Source: a virus (lineage: Duplodnaviria; Heunggongvirae; Uroviricota; Caudoviricetes). From it: a stretch of 6,146 bases of DNA. The stretch is taken from IMG/VR virus record IMGVR_UViG_2645727970_000001, positions 1 to 6,146 of that record; one strand, 5' to 3'. A program made the position numbers and the translations under genes. Shown in pieces: positions 1-6,146 of the stretch. Under the pieces are notes generated by a model that worked only from the letters and a program-made list of their open reading frames with translations, did not search any database and had not been told where the DNA came from. The first letter of the stretch is position 1. Each line of letters begins with the position of its first letter.

Positions 1-29
1 TGGGTGTTTTATTAGTACGAATAAGCACT

Positions 30-57
30 GTGTATTCATTCCAACGAGTGAATACAC
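30..57. repeat. Perfect 9-bp inverted repeat (gtgtattca / tgaatacac) with 10-nt spacer; possible RNA hairpin or protein-binding site
   Basis: Positions 30-38 are the exact reverse complement of 49-57. No T-tract follows, so it is not a classic terminator. Confidence 0.4.
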
Positions 58-119
58 GGAGCAATGTCGCTCGTAACTAAACAGGAGCCGACTTGTTCTG
101 ATTATTGGAAATCTTCTTT

Positions 120-145
120 GCCCTCCAGTGTGAGGGCATTTTTTT
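120..145 (+). terminator. Rho-independent terminator-like hairpin upstream of the first ORF
   Basis: 6-bp GC-rich stem gccctc(120-125)/gagggc(132-137), loop cagtgt, followed by a run of seven T (139-145). Oriented for + strand transcription. Confidence 0.6.
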
Positions 146-157
146 GACGGAGGAAAT

Positions 158-469
158 ATGAAATTACGTGTCTGGCATATCCCGCAAGTTCCTATGAAGC
201 CGTTCATTGTAGAAGTGGCAAGTGTTGAAGAGGGTGTTCGCCTGATGGATGCACTGGCTGATTATGATGCCTTTCAGTATGACAACAATATCAAGCCTGA
301 CTACTGCAATGCTAACGGCCTTGAGATGTGGGATGAGAGCATTACTGATGAAGATTTATCAGAGATGGGGCTTACGGATCGCTGGGTAGATTGGTACAGC
401 GAATGCCAATGTTACGACGACCCACGTAAATATATCGAAAGCCTGAAAGAAGAAACCTCAGCAGCCTGA
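158..469 (+). CDS. Hypothetical small acidic prophage protein (103 aa)
   Basis: ORF with SD ggagg 6 nt upstream of ATG 158. Translation is D/E-rich (about 23 acidic against about 9 basic residues by my count) with several Trp/Tyr and 3 Cys. No family recognised. Confidence 0.7.
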   Translation: MKLRVWHIPQVPMKPFIVEVASVEEGVRLMDALADYDAFQYDNNIKPDYCNANGLEMWDESITDEDLSEMGLTDRWVDWYSECQCYDDPRKYIESLKEETSAA

Positions 470-504
470 GCGCGGATTTGACGCATACAAATTAAGGAGG
501 ATAT

Positions 505-1473
505 ATGAGTGAAGTAACAGATTTAGTTGTTATTGAAAAAGCAAATGCAATGACTGTATTTCAGTCTGCCGACCAGATTGAAGAAATCCTTCAAAAGGTT
601 GAACGTGAAGTTATGTCCTTTGTGCCTGATATCACAACGGCAAAGGGCAGAAAGGAGATCGCTTCTCTGGCGTATAAAGTTGCGCAGACGAAAACATATC
701 TCGATGGTCTTGGTAAAGACCTTGTTGCTGAACTGAAGGAAATTCCAAAGCTAATTGATGCTAACCGCAAGACAGTGCGCGATCGCCTTGATGAACTGAA
801 AGCCAAGGCGCGCCAGCCTCTTACTGATTATGAGGAAGAACAGGCGCGGATTAAAGCCGAAGAAGAAGCTAAGGCAGCAGCTGAAGCTCTCGCAAAGCAA
901 ATTGAGTCTGACCATGAAATAGCGATTTTGATGGATCGCGAATTTGACCGCCAAAGAGAAGAGGCAAGACTCAAAGCGGAGCAGGAAAAGCGAGAGCATG
1001 AAGAACGCTTAAAAAGAGAAGCTGAAGAGAAAGCCAGAGCAGAAGCCGAAGCAAAGGCAAAAGCCGAAATTGAAGCAGCAGCAAGGCGAGAAGCAGAAGC
1101 TAAGGCCGCAGCGGAACGTGCAGAGCGTGAACGCATTGAAGCCGAGCAACGAGCACAGCGCGAAGCAAAAGAGGCAGCAGAACGAGCTGAAAGAGAAAAG
1201 CAGGCGGCAATTGAAGCAGAACGCCGAAAAGCACAGGAGGAGGCTGAACGAATCCGGCGCGAGGCTGAAGCAAAAGAGCAAGCCAGAATAGCAGAAGAAA
1301 AAAGAATCAAGGACGAAGAAGAGCGCAGAGCAAAGGATAAAGCTCACCGGAAAGAAGTAAATAACAAAATACTTGCTGACCTTATCAAGGTTGGCGCATC
1401 AGAAGATGTTGCTAAAAATATCATAACAGCCATCGTAAAAGGCGAAGTATTCGCAACAAAAATAACCTACTAA
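505..1473 (+). CDS. Hypothetical phage protein with long central E/R/K/A-rich helical (coiled-coil or single alpha-helix) region, 322 aa
   Basis: Consensus SD taaggagg 7 nt upstream of ATG 505. N-terminal ~110 aa and C-terminal ~40 aa look globular; residues ~115-285 are low-complexity AEAKAKAE/ERAERE-type repeats. Opposite-strand ORFs across this span are repeat artefacts. Confidence 0.75.
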   Translation: MSEVTDLVVIEKANAMTVFQSADQIEEILQKVEREVMSFVPDITTAKGRKEIASLAYKVAQTKTYLDGLGKDLVAELKEIPKLIDANRKTVRDRLDELKAKARQPLTDYEEEQARIKAEEEAKAAAEALAKQIESDHEIAILMDREFDRQREEARLKAEQEKREHEERLKREAEEKARAEAEAKAKAEIEAAARREAEAKAAAERAERERIEAEQRAQREAKEAAERAEREKQAAIEAERRKAQEEAERIRREAEAKEQARIAEEKRIKDEEERRAKDKAHRKEVNNKILADLIKVGASEDVAKNIITAIVKGEVFATKITY

Positions 1474-1497
1474 TAAAACCAACATAAGGAACCACCC

Positions 1498-1629
1498 ATG
1501 ATTTACGCAATCGCGGGAGGCGCTCGCATGGGTGCCTTCCAACTAAATGAATCTTTACTTGAACGAATCACCCGTAAATTACGTGACGGATGGAAAAGAG
1601 TTGAGGTCTTATTATGCGCAATGAAATAG
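1498..1629 (+). CDS. cIII: CIII-like regulator (FtsH/HflB inhibitor that stabilises CII), short 43-aa form
   Basis: Not in the supplied ORF track (too short). ATG 1498 preceded by aagga. Translation MIYAIAGGARMGAFQLNESLLERITRKLRDGWKRVEVLLCAMK contains the ESLLERITRKLRDGWKR core that I recall from phage lambda CIII. The ORF ends earlier than lambda's 54 aa. Confidence 0.8.
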   Translation: MIYAIAGGARMGAFQLNESLLERITRKLRDGWKRVEVLLCAMK

Positions 1630-1766
1630 CCATCAATCACCAGATGCTTCGTGCTGCACAGAACAAAGCAGTAATAGCCAGATTTATTGGTGATTCCAAA
1701 ATGTGGCTTGAAGCAAATAAAGCGATGAAATCAGCTATCAACCTTCCGTGGTATCGCAGGAAATGA
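1614..1766 (+). CDS. kil: Kil-like small protein (candidate FtsZ/cell-division inhibitor), 50 aa
   Basis: Not in the ORF track. ATG 1614 lies inside the 3' end of cIII with gagg upstream. Translation MRNEIAINHQMLRAAQNKAVIARFIGDSKMWLEANKAMKSAINLPWYRRK has the FIGDxKMWxEA-type core I associate with lambda Kil / Rac KilR; position directly after cIII matches lambda gene order. Confidence 0.55.
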   Translation: MRNEIAINHQMLRAAQNKAVIARFIGDSKMWLEANKAMKSAINLPWYRRK

Positions 1767-1978
1767 GTTTTACAGATAACTGGTCAGACGAAGAATTCAT
1801 TCGTCAGATGAAAGAATTAATCGGTAACGAAGGAGATATTCATGTCACTTGCAACCACAGTGAAGGAGAGCAAGTTACAGAGACGCATGTACACGCAGAA
1901 AGCGCTAAGGTATCGCCAGAAGGGAGACCGCGAAGGAATGCGCGTATGCCTAAATGCGGCAAAGACTCGAAGTATTAA
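1763..1978 (+). CDS. Hypothetical small protein (71 aa from ATG 1763; track lists a GTG start at 1748)
   Basis: ATG 1763 overlaps the kil stop (aATGa), suggesting translational coupling. Acidic N-terminus, His/Cys-containing C-terminal half (HVTCNH...THVH...KCGK). Sits where gam/arf-type genes lie in lambda/P22-like phages but has no recognisable similarity. Confidence 0.55.
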   Translation: MSFTDNWSDEEFIRQMKELIGNEGDIHVTCNHSEGEQVTETHVHAESAKVSPEGRPRRNARMPKCGKDSKY

Positions 1979-2021
1979 ATCAGCGTTATTTCCTTGGGCC
2001 GTGTCCATTCTGAGGTGAATT

Positions 2022-2729
2022 ATGGATTTGAACAAATTCGATGAGCCATTCAGCCCTGAAGATATCGAATGGCGAATACAGCAAAGCGGTAAAACACGCG
2101 ATGGCAAGGTGTGGGCTATGGTGCTGGCTTATGTCACGAACAGGGCAATCATGAAACGCCTGGACGATGTTTGCGGCAAAGCAGGATGGCGCAATGAATA
2201 CCGCGATATTCCCAACAACGGAGGCGTTGAATGCGGCATATCAATAAAGATTGATTCCGAATGGGTAACCAAATGGGATGCTGCTGAAAACACGCAGGTA
2301 GAAGCCGTCAAAGGCGGTCGTTCCGGTGCAATGAAGCGCGCTGCCGTTCAGTGGGGAATCGGTCGGTATCTGTATAACCTTGAGGAAGGTTTCGCACAAA
2401 CATCTCTCGATAAAAAGCAGGGGTGGCACAGGGCAAAACTGAAGGATGGAACAGGATTTTACTGGCTCCCTCCATCGCTGCCGGGATGGGCAATCCCAGC
2501 ATCAGATAAAAAACCATCACCAGAAAATACCAACCAGAAATCTCCATCGGTTGACTGCGAACAAATCCTGAAAGACTTCAGCGATTATGCATCAACAGAA
2601 ACTGACAAGAAAAAACTCATCGAGCGTTATCAGCGTGACTGGCAATTAATGGCTGGCAACGAGGAGGCACAGGCTAAATGCGTTCAGGTAATGAACATCA
2701 GAGTTAACGAACTAAAACAGGCGGCATAA
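2022..2729 (+). CDS. Rad52/Rad22-family single-strand annealing protein (Sak-like phage recombinase), 235 aa
   Basis: SD gaggtga upstream of ATG 2022. Translation contains EAVKGGRSGAMKRAAVQWGIGRYLY, matching the conserved Rad52-family signature. Occupies the position of lambda bet. Confidence 0.8.
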   Translation: MDLNKFDEPFSPEDIEWRIQQSGKTRDGKVWAMVLAYVTNRAIMKRLDDVCGKAGWRNEYRDIPNNGGVECGISIKIDSEWVTKWDAAENTQVEAVKGGRSGAMKRAAVQWGIGRYLYNLEEGFAQTSLDKKQGWHRAKLKDGTGFYWLPPSLPGWAIPASDKKPSPENTNQKSPSVDCEQILKDFSDYASTETDKKKLIERYQRDWQLMAGNEEAQAKCVQVMNIRVNELKQAA

Positions 2730-3197
2730 ATGTCTCACTTGGACGGAATTATTAAAAGATTCGAGTCCAGCTACAAAGTTAATGAAACAACAGGTTGCTG
2801 GGAGTCTACCTATTCAAAAAACAAAGGAGGATACACAAAATTTGTAGCCTTTGGCGTAACAATGCTTTCTCATCGGGTTGCTTTTGAGCTTTATCACTCC
2901 CCCATTCCATCTGGGAAGATGGTTTGCCACAAATGCGATAACCCATGCTGCGTTAATCCTGAACATCTCTTTTTAGGTAGCGCGCAAGAAAACATGGACG
3001 ACAAGATAGCAAAAGGAAGGCATCGTGGAGCCAAGAAAGGTCATGCTCATCATGGTGCAAAATTAACAGAGTGGCAGGTTATAGAAATTAGGAAAAGACT
3101 CTCTGAAAAAGAGAGTCAGTACAAGATAGCAAAAGACATGGGTGTATCTCAATCAATTATAAGCAACATAAAAACTGGCAAGAGGTGGAGCAAATGA
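2730..3197 (+). CDS. HNH endonuclease (HNH_3-type, probable free-standing homing-type nuclease) with C-terminal helix-turn-helix-like region, 155 aa
   Basis: ATG 2730 directly abuts the upstream TAA (TAAATG). Motif [23 protein letters not shown] fits the H...C..C...N..H...N pattern of HNH nucleases. The coding sequence looks AT-richer than its neighbours by eye. Confidence 0.8.
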
Positions 3198-3700
3198 GTT
3201 CTCGCGGGATAAATAAGGTGATTATCCTTGGTCGGGTAGGACAAGACCCGGAAGTTCGATACTCACCATCAGGAACAGCGTTCGCTAACCTGACAATAGC
3301 CACGTCAGAACAATGGCGAGATAAAAATACTGGCGAGCAAAAGGAATTGACTGAATGGCATCGTGTTGCTGTATCCGGGAAACTGGCTGAGGTCGTGGGG
3401 CAGTATGTAAAAAAAGGTGATCAGATTTATTTCGAGGGAATGCTGAGAACCAGAAAGTGGAAAGACCAGTCAGGGCAAGACCGTTACACAACCGAGGTTC
3501 ATGTCGGAATTAATGGCGTGATGCAAATGCTTGGCGGCATTGGCGACAGCAAACAACAAGCAGCCAGCAGGCAATCACAGAAGCCACAGCAGCAATCATC
3601 ACCAGCACAACACAACGAACCTCCGATGGATTTTGACGACGACATACCCTTTGCACCAGTAACTCTCCCCTTCCCTCGTCACGCTATTCACGCAATTTAA
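3194..3700 (+). CDS. ssb: Single-stranded DNA-binding protein (phage-encoded SSB), 168 aa from ATG 3194
   Basis: N-terminus [23 protein letters not shown]...TEWHRV...[19 protein letters not shown] is close to E. coli SSB. ATG 3194 overlaps the HNH stop (aATGa); the track's GTG at 3185 is less likely. Q/S-rich linker then [11 protein letters not shown], but the frame continues 15 codons ([15 protein letters not shown]) before TAA. Confidence 0.95.
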
Positions 3701-3713
3701 TCAGGAGAAAAAC

Positions 3714-4010
3714 ATGCCAGCGCCTCTGTATGGTGCGGACGACGCACGCCGCTGTTCCGGCAATTCCGTATCGGAGGTGCTGGATAAATTCAGAAAAAAC
3801 TACGATCGGATAATGTCTCTACCGCAGGAAACGAAAGAGGAAAAGGAATTTCGCTATTGTATATGGCTTGCAGAGAAAGAAGAGCGCGAGCGAATTTACC
3901 AGACATCAATCCGACCATTCCGCAAAGCCACATATACCCACTTCCCTGAATATATCGACCCGCGCCTGCGTAATTACCGCTCACGCTATGGCGCTATCAG
4001 TAATGACTGA
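3714..4010 (+). CDS. Hypothetical prophage protein (98 aa)
   Basis: SD aggag 8 nt upstream of ATG 3714, 13 nt after the ssb stop. No recognisable motif; basic and Tyr/Arg-rich C-terminus. Confidence 0.65.
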
Positions 4011-4020
4011 GGAATTTACC

Positions 4021-4215
4021 ATGAGAGGACTTGCATACAATCCCGGCATTCTTCCGGCAGAAATGATTATTCGCCAACGCGTAAAGCCAATGCCATCGAG
4101 AGAGGAATTTCTTAAGAGAAATTCTTCTCCGTCAGTGAATCAAAACAAATATGTGACTGCTCCCCGCCCTGTCGGGCGAGGCTTCCCACTTCTCAGGCCG
4201 CAACCGTCTGTATGA
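4021..4215 (+). CDS. Small prophage ORF (64 aa as read) whose 3' part runs into the IS right end and tnpB; probably truncated or fused by the insertion
   Basis: SD tgagga 8 nt upstream of ATG 4021, 10 nt after the previous stop. The track's longer form (3868..4215) overlaps the 98-aa ORF and is unlikely. From about 4145 onward the sequence is IS-derived, so the native C-terminus is unknown. Confidence 0.35.
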
Positions 4216-4300
4216 CGGATTTACGCTGGCCTCCATGGGCAGAGACGACGTGTCCCGCCGCCTTTAGCTCCAGTATTCCTTTTTGCCGGATATTGAGTGC
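4125..4300 (-). ncRNA. Putative TnpB guide RNA (omega/reRNA) spanning the 3' end of tnpB, the IS right end and adjacent flank (predicted, not directly visible)
   Basis: Inferred from established TnpB biology: the guide RNA derives from the tnpB 3' end plus right end, with the guide read from flanking DNA. Only the hairpin at 4162-4181 is seen directly; extent is a guess. Confidence 0.3.
4162..4181. repeat. Subterminal imperfect palindrome of the IS, tnpB-proximal (right end)
   Basis: ccccgccc-tgtc-gggcgagg: 5-bp cgccc/gggcg stem with a conserved C/A mismatch, flanked by ct...ttc. Near-identical to the hairpin at 5887-5907. Confidence 0.65.
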
Positions 4301-5368
4301 TGCATTGATATCCCGGTCATGTTCAATACCGCATTCAGGGCATCGCCAGATGCGTTTATGAAGTGGCATTTCCGGCATCTTGTAACCACAACAATGGCAG
4401 GTTTTCGAACTGGCAAACCACTGGTCGAGTTTTACCAGGTGAACGCCTTTTTCTGCTGCCTTGTACTCCAGCTTTACGATGAAGCTGTGCCAGCCCGCAT
4501 CACCTATCGCTCTTGCCAGATTGTGGTTTTTCATCATGTTGGCTGTTTTCAGCGTCTCGACAATTACCGCTTGGTTTTCGTCAACAATTGCACGAGAAAG
4601 TTTGTGTTGAAAATCAGCACGGGCATTGGCAACCCGTTCGTGTAACGCAGCCAGTCGGATTCTGGCCTTTTTACGGTTCGCGCTTCCCTTTTGTTTGCGG
4701 GATAGCGCTTTTTGTTTGCGTCGCAGATTACGGCTGGCATTGATGAGATGACGAGGATTCGGAGCTTTTCCCCCATCAGACATGATGACATAGTGCTCAA
4801 GCCCCATATCCACACCAGTAATCTTTTCTTCCTCCAGATACGCTGGTTTCTCTGGTGTGGGAATACCGTCTTCACAAAGGATAGATGCGTAGTATTTCCC
4901 GGTGGCACTGCGAGTGATTGTTATGCTCCTCACTTTTCCCGCCATTACACGGTGTATACGCGTTTCTATCGGTGCCAGCTTAGGAATTTTGATGGCATTC
5001 TCCAGTACTTTAATCCCGACACAATGGTAGCTCGATTGCTTCCCATGTTTACGTTTAAACGTCGGGAATCGTGCTTTCAGCTTCGGATTAAAAAAGTTGG
5101 AAAACGCCACATCAAGATTAATCACCGCCTGTTGCAATGCCATTGAATCAAATTCTTTAAGCCAGGCATACCTGCGGGACTTCTTCGCCACAGACAACAA
5201 CGGTTTTAAATCTTTACGCGGACGTAAATTCACTCCGTGTCGCTGGTAAGCGTGTTTTTTGATGTTAAGAGCTTTGTTGTATGCAAAACGTACCGCACCG
5301 AACTGGGCATTGAGATACTCAGCCTGTTCGGTAGTGGGATATATGCGTACTTTTGTCGCTCTTAACAT
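4193..5368 (-). CDS. tnpB: TnpB (IS200/IS605 OrfB; RuvC-like RNA-guided endonuclease), 391 aa
   Basis: Translation shows a split RuvC fold with candidate catalytic residues in GVDMGLEHY (D), AVIVETLK (E) and [10 protein letters not shown] (D), plus a CxxC...CxxC zinc finger (CHCCGYK...CPECG). Full length with ATG start. Confidence 0.9.
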
Positions 5369-5412
5369 ACTCAGCGCTCATTGATATTATTCAATTATTT
5401 TAACAAATTGAG

Positions 5413-5850
5413 GTGATTTTTCAATTGAGCGAACAACATGAATCTCTTGAAGGCTTCCTTCGGAAGCGTCACAGTGTGAGCAAGCTCGTAGTACATTTAA
5501 TTTTCACGACAAAGTATCGCAGAAAACTTTTTGACGGATGCATGATAGAGCAACTACGGGAAGCTTTTTGTTCCGCCGCAGCAAAACTTGAATGCGAAAT
5601 TCTTGAAATGGACGGTGAGACAGATCATGTGCATCTGTTGGTTGCTTATCCGCCCAAACTGGCAGTCAGCGTCATGGTGAATAATTTGAAATCAGTATCG
5701 TCACGTTTGCTGTGCCAGCAAAACACACATTTACGAACACAGAGCAAAACAGGCTTGCTTTGGTCAAGATCCTACTTTGCATGTAGTGCCGGAGGTGCGA
5801 CGATAGAAACGCTCAGAACTTACGTTCAAAGCCAGTCAACGCCGGAATGA
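5413..5850 (+). CDS. tnpA: TnpA, IS200-type Y1 (HuH) transposase; translation probably starts at TTG 5425 rather than GTG 5413
   Basis: KYRRKLF near the N-terminus, HuH motif DHVHLLV, catalytic-type Tyr in LRTYVQSQ and LWSRSYF...GGA match the IS200 TnpA pattern. No in-frame ATG; GAGGTGA (5410-5416) sits 8 nt before TTG 5425. Divergent from tnpB across 44 bp. Confidence 0.85.
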   Translation: MIFQLSEQHESLEGFLRKRHSVSKLVVHLIFTTKYRRKLFDGCMIEQLREAFCSAAAKLECEILEMDGETDHVHLLVAYPPKLAVSVMVNNLKSVSSRLLCQQNTHLRTQSKTGLLWSRSYFACSAGGATIETLRTYVQSQSTPE

Positions 5851-5857
5851 TTTTTTT

Positions 5858-5875
5858 AAAGCCCTTCGGGCTTTT
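5858..5875 (+). other. Perfect 7-bp hairpin with TTCG loop just after the tnpA stop, inside the IS left end
   Basis: aaagccc-ttcg-gggcttt, preceded by seven T. Only a weak T-run follows, so it may be a structural or transposition-related element rather than a strong terminator. Confidence 0.4.
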
Positions 5876-5886
5876 CCGCCTTTCCT

Positions 5887-5907
5887 CCCCGCCCGCATTG
5901 GGCGAGG
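5887..5907. repeat. Subterminal imperfect palindrome of the IS, tnpA-proximal (left end)
   Basis: ccccgccc-gcatt-gggcgagg: same stem and same C/A mismatch as 4162-4181, same orientation, about 1.7 kb away. Confidence 0.65.
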
Positions 5908-5928
5908 GTTCTCGGCGGTTGTTTGCTG

Positions 5929-5953
5929 AACTCGCTACGGCGAGTTTTGTTTT
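5929..5953 (+). terminator. Terminator-like hairpin at or just outside the IS left boundary
   Basis: 7-bp stem aactcgc/gcgagtt with tacg loop, followed by a T-rich tail (ttgtttt). Oriented for the + strand; could terminate tnpA read-out or belong to the phage. Confidence 0.45.
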
Positions 5954-5966
5954 ATGGAGATGATAA

Positions 5967-6134
5967 ATGCACTTTCGAGTCACAGGTGAATGGAATGGAG
6001 AACAATTCAACAGAGTTATCGAAGCAGAGAACATCAATGACTGCTATGACCACTGGATGATATGGGCGCAGATAGCCCATGCAGACGTAACCAATATTCG
6101 AATTGAAGAACTGAAAGAACACCAAGCCGCCTGA
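5967..6134 (+). CDS. Hypothetical small prophage protein (55 aa)
   Basis: Not in the ORF track. ATG 5967 with ggag 7 nt upstream; translation MHFRVTGEWNGEQFNRVIEAENINDCYDHWMIWAQIAHADVTNIRIEELKEHQAA. Stop codon lies in the loop of the following terminator. Confidence 0.5.
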   Translation: MHFRVTGEWNGEQFNRVIEAENINDCYDHWMIWAQIAHADVTNIRIEELKEHQAA

Positions 6135-6146
6135 TGGCGGTTTTTT
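6127..6146 (+). terminator. Rho-independent terminator at the end of the + strand gene array
   Basis: Stem ccgcc(6127-6131)/ggcgg(6136-6140), loop TGAT, then six T to the window edge. Confidence 0.6.

Follow-up and report, generated by a model that had tools for sequence, protein, structure and literature searches.

Two matched hairpins in a lambdoid prophage as probable subterminal palindromes of a 1,773-bp IS200/IS605 element

The window considered here is a 6,146-bp stretch of viral DNA (IMG/VR record IMGVR_UViG_2645727970_000001, positions 1 to 6,146; Caudoviricetes), presented 5' to 3' as its plus strand. It carries two matched hairpins about 1.7 kb apart which, very probably, are the subterminal imperfect palindromes of the left (LE) and right (RE) ends of a 1,773-bp insertion sequence (IS) of the IS200/IS605 family that works like IS608 of Helicobacter pylori. 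A first-pass annotation of the window had taken the hairpins to define the ends of such an element. Its recognition of them as IS200/IS605 palindromes stands, while the element itself ends 9 nt and 18 nt farther out. Coordinates of all features are collected in Table 1.

A hairpin duplicated on one strand

An exact search of the window for CCCCGCCC-N3-6-GGGCGAGG returned two plus-strand matches, at 4162-4181 and 5887-5907. The sequences, positions, common arms, common mismatch and unlike loops that had been described for the pair were thereby confirmed: the 8-nt arms are the same in both copies, the loops read TGTC and GCATT, respectively, and the third stem pair is a C/A mismatch on the plus strand and a T·G on the minus strand. 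The annotation had also proposed that both regions be folded as single-stranded DNA, and the predicted hairpin indeed forms whichever strand is folded. The minus strand has a slight advantage; on it the left hairpin reaches -8.4 kcal/mol (z -2.4) and the right hairpin, with an outer helix described below included, -13.8 kcal/mol (z -3.0). The folding z-score of each hairpin taken singly is modest, and we derive the significance of the pair rather from the fact that both arms are duplicated exactly and are maintained in relatives.

Enterobacterial genomes commonly contain short G+C-rich palindromes, and the likeness of the two hairpins might thus be fortuitous, or reflect a host repeat of the repetitive extragenic palindrome (REP) type unrelated to the transposon. 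The search pattern was however absent from all of 200 dinucleotide-preserving shuffles, that is, two copies were found against none expected, and both copies travel with the element across unrelated contexts and hosts at fixed positions relative to its ends. A chance or REP-like origin is thereby effectively refuted.

Element limits, working strand and mobility

The limits of the element were apparent from a comparison of filled and empty norW genes. The empty gene reads ...ACGCCG followed directly by CTGAAACTCC, and in the filled gene the same two flanks enclose GTGACTGC...TTTTTCG, with no duplication of the target. Related copies are present in three further contexts, namely plasmid pGF60-C, the norW insertion in TUM9803 and ISEc46 in WCHEC050613, and the homology of the window with these runs from GTGACTGC (4153) to ...GTTTG/TTTCG (5925), after which CTGAA or CTAAG follows. 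As the limits are 4153 and 5925, the hairpins are subterminal. An inverted-repeat search returned no pair joining the two termini.

A 100% identical 1,773-bp copy (L086) was recovered from another assembly in a plasmid-like context (ArdA and ParB, from an exact-protein look-up), flanked by GCATTCAG and AACACC, and this identical copy in an unrelated context shows the element to be mobile. We also detected a derivative that has lost tnpA (L091; plasmid NZ_CP069679.1, 16268-18404), in which element positions 1-88 are joined to 540-1773 at 94% identity, with both ends, both hairpins and tnpB retained and ATCAG at the insertion site. Derivatives of this type reside in P1-like phage-plasmids of E. 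coli and E. albertii, beside the late promoter-activating protein gene (L091, H72-H78). The same element was not recovered from the species-representative genomes, where the best TnpA match reaches only 90%.

The sequence immediately 5' of the LE is TTCAG in the window, L086, pGF60-C and norW and ATCAG in L091, i.e. in five independent contexts, and TTAG in relatives of the window lineage. Because only on the minus strand is T(T)CAG found 5' of the element, this strand is the top strand, and the right-hand hairpin consequently belongs to the LE and the left-hand hairpin to the RE. The complementarity between guides and cleavage sites presented below likewise works only on the minus strand. Here the LE cleavage site precedes the hairpin foot by 18 nt, and the RE terminates 9 nt past its own foot, in a tail (AGCAGTCAC) that is nearly invariant in 38 relatives; four contigs stop exactly at the RE end. 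The same-strand orientation that the first-pass annotation had considered typical of IS200/IS605 ends is borne out by two hairpins on one strand that are both kept in relatives. Together with a Y1 HUH transposase (TnpA), the absence of target duplication and a guide-base code (recognized by covariation only), it supports the assignment, from sequence, of the element to the IS200/IS605 family with an IS605-type layout, in the order LE, reversed tnpA, tnpB and RE.

Conservation of the hairpins in relatives

A TnpA scan of species-representative genomes yielded 80 loci at 58-90% identity, with hosts including Photorhabdus, Xenorhabdus, Serratia, Aeromonas, Endozoicomonas, Vibrio, Halomonas/Vreelandella and others, and with a divergent tnpA/tnpB layout in nearly all loci. 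The hairpins were compared in 38 distinct RE and 51 distinct LE sequences. In the RE, 98% of the cells of the 8-bp stem are paired, as compared to 52-62% with the partners slid, and 15 cells display double-sided compensatory changes, a level that was reached in 0 of 500 shuffles. Examples include the second pair, where C-G gives way to A-T, and the closing pair, where G-C, A-T or T-A replaces C-G. The inner stem of the LE is paired in 97% of cells and nearly invariant, so that its support derives from conservation rather than covariation. The comparison with the ends of related copies that had been suggested thus showed the stems to be kept at both ends, and the accompanying covariation check came out clearly in favor of the RE stem, with the LE stem supported mostly by conservation.

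Two details of the earlier description require adjustment. The C/A mismatch is present on the plus strand as described, but the working minus strand has a T·G at the third pair, maintained in 34 of 38 RE and 45 of 51 LE sequences; indeed, one-sided changes give G·T pairs on the minus strand and C/A mismatches on the plus strand, which again points to the former. Identity of the LE and RE stems is furthermore not a requirement, as the two are alike in only 6 of 25 relatives.

Guide, cleavage-site and triplet code

The cleavage tetranucleotides of IS608 are each base-paired to a four-base guide on the 5' side of the hairpin foot, and the two bases on the 3' side enter triplets with guide bases 1 and 2, yielding the code TTAC/AAAG/AT (cleavage site, guide, 3' bases) at the LE and TCAA/GAAT/AG at the RE (PMC3201880). 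An equivalent arrangement can be read at both ends of the window element. The flanks shared by the two hairpins in the first-pass annotation ('ct' on the 5' side and 'c/g-ttc' on the 3' side) are real and coincide with predicted functional positions: on the minus strand, 'ct' is the AG triplet pair and 'ttc' corresponds to GAA in the guide. The one position at which the flanks differ, c or g (4182 versus 5908), is the guide base that fits TCAC at the RE or TCAG at the LE.

Among the relatives, most LEs (44) combine TTAG, AAAC and AT, and the window lineage together with L076 and L079 (4 distinct sequences) has TCAG, GAAC and AG. The RE is TCAC, GAAG and AG throughout (36 of 38). Target position -3 and guide base 1 are T:A in 46 and C:G in 4 of the 51 LEs, with one unpaired exception, and the last cleavage-site base pairs with guide base 4 as G:C at the LE and C:G at the RE. 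The LE 3' bases follow the same division, being AG in all TCAG-type elements and AT in all 46 with A-first guides (the 44 canonical TTAG-type and two single variants). The unpaired exception, L064, exhibits a TCAG flank and yet a TTAG-type guide and a Leu at the equivalent of TnpB residue 76 (see below), and its flank is therefore probably mutated or off-target. In this same Enterobacteriaceae locus (2709-2763), a GTTTAC 3' of the LE hairpin is a perfect complement of the guide region GTAAAC, so that the whole LE folds as one 19-bp hairpin, possibly representing an inactivated end.

As an independent check, metagenomes were scanned for a GAAC-hairpin-AG arrangement. Besides four LEs of a known Halomonas-like lineage, the scan recovered right ends of another group, 111 in number and predominantly of hot-spring origin; 107 of them terminate in TCAG 9-10 nt past the foot with random sequence directly beyond. 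In a different group of elements on metagenome contigs (L094-L213, many of the samples from hot springs), the right ends combine the stem CCTCGCCC/GGGCGGGG with a GAAC guide and have GTCAG at the end of the tail; this stem thus occurs far beyond the ISEc46 clade.

For elements of Geobacillus, covariation of the transposon-adjacent motif (TAM) and transposon-encoded motif (TEM) with the DNA guides has been described (bioRxiv 10.1101/2023.03.14.532601), and we hence consider the guide code presented here a confirmation in a new clade and not a new principle.

The right-end hairpin and a predicted guide RNA

When the terminal 190 nt of the element were folded jointly from 28 relatives, the consensus contained 34 pairs, 16 of which show compensatory changes. 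Four of the consensus stems fall within the coding 3' end of tnpB, and the RE hairpin follows as the final stem, 9 nt short of the element boundary. The RE hairpin is hence predicted to double as the terminal stem of the scaffold of a guide RNA (ωRNA) for TnpB. Following the ISDra2/TnpB model (PMC10097598, PMC8612924), the phage flank directly 3' of the RE would then provide a 16-nt guide, and TTCAG is the predicted TAM. The same layout is seen in the ωRNA of ISDra2, whose scaffold of 116 nt has its terminal stem-loop immediately upstream of the guide and forms a pseudoknot through -5 to -3 (PMC10097598). A search of Rfam 15 matched no family on either strand of the window at E <= 1, and the Rfam TnpB models are stated by Meers et al. 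to span only small subsets (bioRxiv 10.1101/2023.03.14.532601). Consistent with the pseudoknot of ISDra2, the GUC at -5 to -3 of the window element could pair with a largely conserved GAC (4254-4252) in the loop of the first stem; the A varies in 6 of 28 relatives, with no compensatory change. A long-range pairing of 4312-4310 with 4157-4155 that was proposed by RNAalifold exhibits one-sided variation only and competes with the ISDra2-like pseudoknot, and was rejected.

The placement of the RE hairpin in a covarying, multi-stem RNA-like structure, and a conserved T·G that would be an ordinary U·G wobble in RNA, are also what a role in RNA alone would yield, with the left hairpin of the window acting as an ωRNA stem, the right hairpin as a structure in the 3' untranslated region of the tnpA mRNA or as a barrier to incoming transcription, and TnpA recognizing something else. 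The LE stem-loop of IS200 is likewise known to act on transcription. However, the LE hairpin of the window lies outside the ωRNA, and on the strand of the tnpA mRNA (plus) it has the C/A mismatch, yet the same stem and T·G are kept on the minus strand. An exclusive RNA role also does not predict the flanking IS608-type DNA code of guides and cleavage sites with its lineage-specific switches, nor hairpin-to-end distances (18 nt at the LE and 9 nt at the RE) that match the hairpin-to-cleavage distances of IS608 (19 and 10 nt; PMC3201880). We consider it improbable, and retain subterminal palindromes recognized as DNA as the favored function of both hairpins.

Additional structures at the left end

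The LE hairpin is surrounded by a 5-bp outer helix, which encloses the guide and the predicted triplet bases as well. Across the 51 relatives, two of its pairs flip between orientations (GC 26/CG 23 and CG 29/GC 16), arguing that this helix is under selection. Between the outer helix and the stop codon of tnpA there is in addition a small hairpin, at the position of which relatives have different self-complementary sequences, such as GGAACCGC/GCGGTTCT and GGGGCCGC/GCGGCCCT; these often overlap the tnpA stop codon and are without a T-run.

That the two main hairpins are G+C-rich and placed just downstream of stop codons (tnpB end at 4193, tnpA end at 5850) would also suit intrinsic terminators, of tnpB on the left and of tnpA on the right. 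There is however no T-run on the relevant strand in either case, and the terminator scan calls neither hairpin, its only nearby call (5928-5947) being a phage terminator outside the element. Termination would moreover call for neither identical arms nor a conserved mismatch nor a guide code, and an ωRNA guide requires tnpB transcription to read through the hairpin. Termination is accordingly a very improbable function of the pair, even more so than an exclusive RNA role.

Transposition proteins and the TAM-contact residue

TnpA aligns with the structures of the IS608 and ISDra2 transposases, and both the HUH motif (DHVHLL) and the C-terminal catalytic Tyr are present. TnpB is a clear homologue of ISDra2 TnpB (8BF8; E = 2e-79), with the D/E/D triad of the RuvC domain intact (GVDMG, VETL and HDRD), as judged by alignment only to 9YYG, an AI-designed relative of ISDra2 TnpB; the match to 8BF8 covers the same range. 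The spacer between the two genes harbors overlapping, divergent matches to sigma-70-like promoters, at 5362-5390 (plus) and 5424-5397 (minus); each scores 10/12 with an extended -10 TG and is placed for tnpA and tnpB, respectively, although the count of such matches is not above that of shuffles.

Residue 76 of TnpB (codon 5141-5143, minus strand) aligns with F77 of ISDra2, a TAM contact. Ile or Leu occupies this position in 31 TTAG-type elements, whereas all 7 TCAG-type elements have Met; L058, flanked by TTAA, has Asn at the equivalent position. The seven TCAG-type elements form two lineages, the nearest relatives of each being TTAG-type (L076, L079, L077 and L004 are among the loci concerned). 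TnpB positions 13 and 59 were also considered as correlates of target type and rejected, since the TTAG-type L077 shares them with L076 and L079. As the metagenome scan contributed mostly right ends of the other group and LEs of a known lineage, the residue association remains one of two lineages.

Tentatively, and without ourselves favoring it outright, we raise the possibility that the Escherichia and the Halomonas/Ectothiorhodospira lineages switched independently from TTAG to TCAG by the same changes (guide base 1 from A to G, the second 3' base of the LE from T to G, and TnpB Ile/Leu to Met at the F77-equivalent). This would amount to a natural, convergent co-reprogramming of a DNA-guided transposase and of a nuclease TAM that is read by protein. 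In addition, the covarying outer helix of the LE would hold guide and triplet bases clamped in an internal loop, a feature outside the IS608 model.

Phage setting and insertion site

The window corresponds to contig JHSX01000060.1 of assembly GCA_001266195.1 and represents the early-left region of a P22/HK620-like lambdoid prophage, with Rad52/Rad22, HNH_3 and SSB among the Pfam assignments of its gene products. A second contig of the same assembly contains the region again, followed by an integrase and a pectinesterase gene, a placement that we take to be the lambda attachment region of Escherichia. In the window, tnpB and tnpA are the two genes between the DUF2737 gene and the next phage gene. 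The DUF2737 gene is cut near 4160, since the match to its Pfam profile stops at position 47 of 53. Within the DUF2737 coding sequence, at 4100-4129 and some 25 nt from the insertion point, we observed a near-perfect 13-bp inverted repeat (GAGAGGAATTTCT / AGAAATTCTTCTC).

The IS occupies a deletion of phage DNA (window 4137-4152 and 5926-5950) in which DUF2737 is truncated. Uninterrupted phage relatives have two TATCTGAA sites, 200 bp to 1.66 kb apart (about 751 and about 2414 in L001, 271 and 474 in L093, and 311 in L092), the first being AAATAT followed by CTGAATGCG, within DUF2737, and the second TTTTAT followed by CTGAACTCGC, ahead of the terminator of the next gene. In the window, the left flank of the first site, the IS and the right flank of the second site follow upon each other, an arrangement that is present in four assemblies. 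Neither the phage collection nor the full set of complete E. coli genomes has a record with the IS-free joint in one piece, and a pre-existing short phage variant was thus not found. The simplest explanation of the deletion is recombination between two IS copies in the same orientation. Phage homology that seemingly extends to 4160/4161 was dismissed as an alignment artefact, the phage CTGAATGC resembling the IS end GTGACTGC.

Table 1. Features of the element and of its phage surroundings (window positions; strand relative to the window as presented)
Feature	Position	Strand	Remark
Insertion sequence, 1,773 bp	4153..5925	-	LE from 5925 downward; RE ends at 4153
TTCAG target / left cleavage-site motif	5926..5930	-	Outside the element; core of left cleavage site (CL) TCAG, 5929-5926; predicted TAM of TnpB
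LE outer helix, 5' arm CCGCC	5914..5918	-	Encloses left guide (GL), hairpin and triplet bases
LE guide (GL), GAAC	5908..5911	-	Directly 5' of hairpin foot
LE subterminal hairpin (left imperfect palindrome, IPL)	5887..5907	-	CCTCGCCC-AATGC-GGGCGGGG; T·G third pair
LE 3' bases AG, predicted triplet-forming	5885..5886	-	Two bases 3' of foot
LE outer helix, 3' arm GGCGG	5876..5880	-	Pairs with 5914-5918
Small hairpin AAAGCCC-TTC-GGGCTTT	5858..5874	.	Between tnpA stop codon and LE outer helix
tnpA, Y1 HUH transposase, 145 aa	5413..5850	+	Pfam Y1_Tnp, E = 1.5e-37; RefSeq relatives start 4 codons later
tnpB, 391 aa, RNA-guided nuclease homologue	4193..5368	-	Pfam OrfB_IS605, Cas12f1-like_TNB, HTH_OrfB_IS605
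Predicted ωRNA scaffold	4153..4263	-	RNAalifold consensus
Predicted ωRNA stems	4263-4257/4249-4243, 4239-4235/4189-4185, 4231-4225/4201-4196, 4218-4214/4208-4204		Plus the RE hairpin
RE guide (GR), GAAG	4182..4185	-	5' of RE hairpin foot
RE subterminal hairpin (right imperfect palindrome, IPR)	4162..4181	-	CCTCGCCC-GACA-GGGCGGGG; also terminal stem of predicted ωRNA scaffold
RE tail AGCAGTCAC	4153..4161	-	AG triplet bases 4161-4160 and right cleavage site (CR) TCAC 4156-4153; element ends after final C
Predicted 16-nt ωRNA guide ATATTTGTTTTGATTC	4137..4152	-	Phage flank directly 3' of RE
abc2	3714-4010		Downstream of Rad52/Rad22, HNH_3 and SSB genes
DUF2737 gene	start 4021		Pfam profile matched only to position 47 of 53
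Next phage gene beyond the IS	5967-6134

Discussion

By analogy with IS608, the Y1 TnpA would bind each hairpin when the minus strand is single-stranded. The cleavage sites would not be read by TnpA itself; rather, GAAC would pair with TCAG at the LE and GAAG with TCAC at the RE, and the AG 3' of each foot would complete base triplets. The element would then leave as a single-stranded circle with the donor resealed without a scar, and insert 3' of another T(T)CAG with the target not duplicated. In parallel, the RE hairpin would be transcribed with the 3' end of tnpB as the last ωRNA stem, 9 nt before the guide, and the resulting ωRNA may direct TnpB to the resealed empty site, i.e. the TAM TTCAG plus flank.

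Several aspects weigh against this scheme. Binding by TnpA, its strand preference and its cleavage positions are transferred from IS608. The inner stem of the LE has only two cells with double-sided change, and a role in RNA alone could drive the conservation of the RE hairpin, so that only the LE copy argues independently for a role in DNA. Moreover, the C:G covariation of guide and target rests on two lineages and has one exception (L064), and the ωRNA assignment rests on covariation and analogy since no Rfam family matches.

The hairpins themselves are textbook biology for IS200/IS605 elements, and current understanding is not overturned. What is gained is an annotation, comprising the exact ends, the working strand, the target motif and a predicted ωRNA and guide, of an unnamed relative of ISEc46 residing in Escherichia prophages and phage-plasmids. 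In terms of sequence, a distant gammaproteobacterial clade follows the IS608 code of guides, cleavage sites and triplets without change. The lead of most interest is that the DNA guide of TnpA and the TAM-contact residue of TnpB may have changed together: TTAG and TCAG are two naturally occurring specificities for which TnpB offers one candidate residue, and this might help the engineering of TnpB TAM preference.

Comparison with known systems

With IS608 the window element shares a Y1 HUH TnpA and a TnpB, imperfect subterminal palindromes in the same orientation on one strand, a left cleavage site outside and a right site inside the element, and no target duplication. The scheme of the code is also the same, with 4-nt guides 5' of the feet and two triplet bases 3' of them. 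In contrast, tnpA and tnpB are co-oriented in IS608 and divergent here, as in IS605; the target is TTAC in IS608 and T(T)CAG here; the stem irregularity of the window element is a T·G mismatch; and its TnpA is only distantly similar (E = 6e-20). The additional covarying outer helix of the LE, around guide and hairpin, may be a further difference.

The window element is also a relative of ISEc46 of E. coli (the name being that of the RefSeq annotation), with which the gene layout, length class, both hairpin stems and the RE tail AGCAGTCAC are shared, and in which the outer helix and the tnpA-proximal hairpin are equally placed. The two differ by a DNA identity of 78.3% and protein identities of 86% (TnpA) and 83% (TnpB), by the code TTAG/AAAC/AT in ISEc46 as compared to TCAG/GAAC/AG here, and by Ile rather than Met at the TnpB equivalent of ISDra2 F77. 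By the ISfinder convention, copies of the same IS have about 95% protein or 90% DNA identity; the DNA, TnpA and TnpB identities to ISEc46 all fall below these values and the target motif differs. Thus, the window element is a distinct relative and not a copy of ISEc46, given the lower identity and the different target set.

ISDra2 of Deinococcus radiodurans encodes a homologous TnpB, and its ωRNA overlaps the 3' end of tnpB and the RE. Its stem 4 has the tetraloop at -20 to -17, and the window hairpin spans -29 to -10; the window element also has a possible pseudoknot using -5 to -3 (GUC). The TAM of ISDra2 is TTGAT as compared to the predicted TTCAG, its TAM-contact residues are K76/F77 as compared to S75/M76, and the ωRNA of the window element is a prediction. 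ISGst of Geobacillus stearothermophilus likewise displays covariation of the TAM/TEM and the DNA guides adjacent to the subterminal palindromes, and its TnpB homes to the donor joint (Meers et al., bioRxiv 10.1101/2023.03.14.532601). Hosts and sequences are other than here, and neither a link to a TAM-contact residue of TnpB nor an LE outer helix is among the features described in the accessible part of that preprint. In all the sequence comparisons made, the window element behaves like IS608 and ISDra2.

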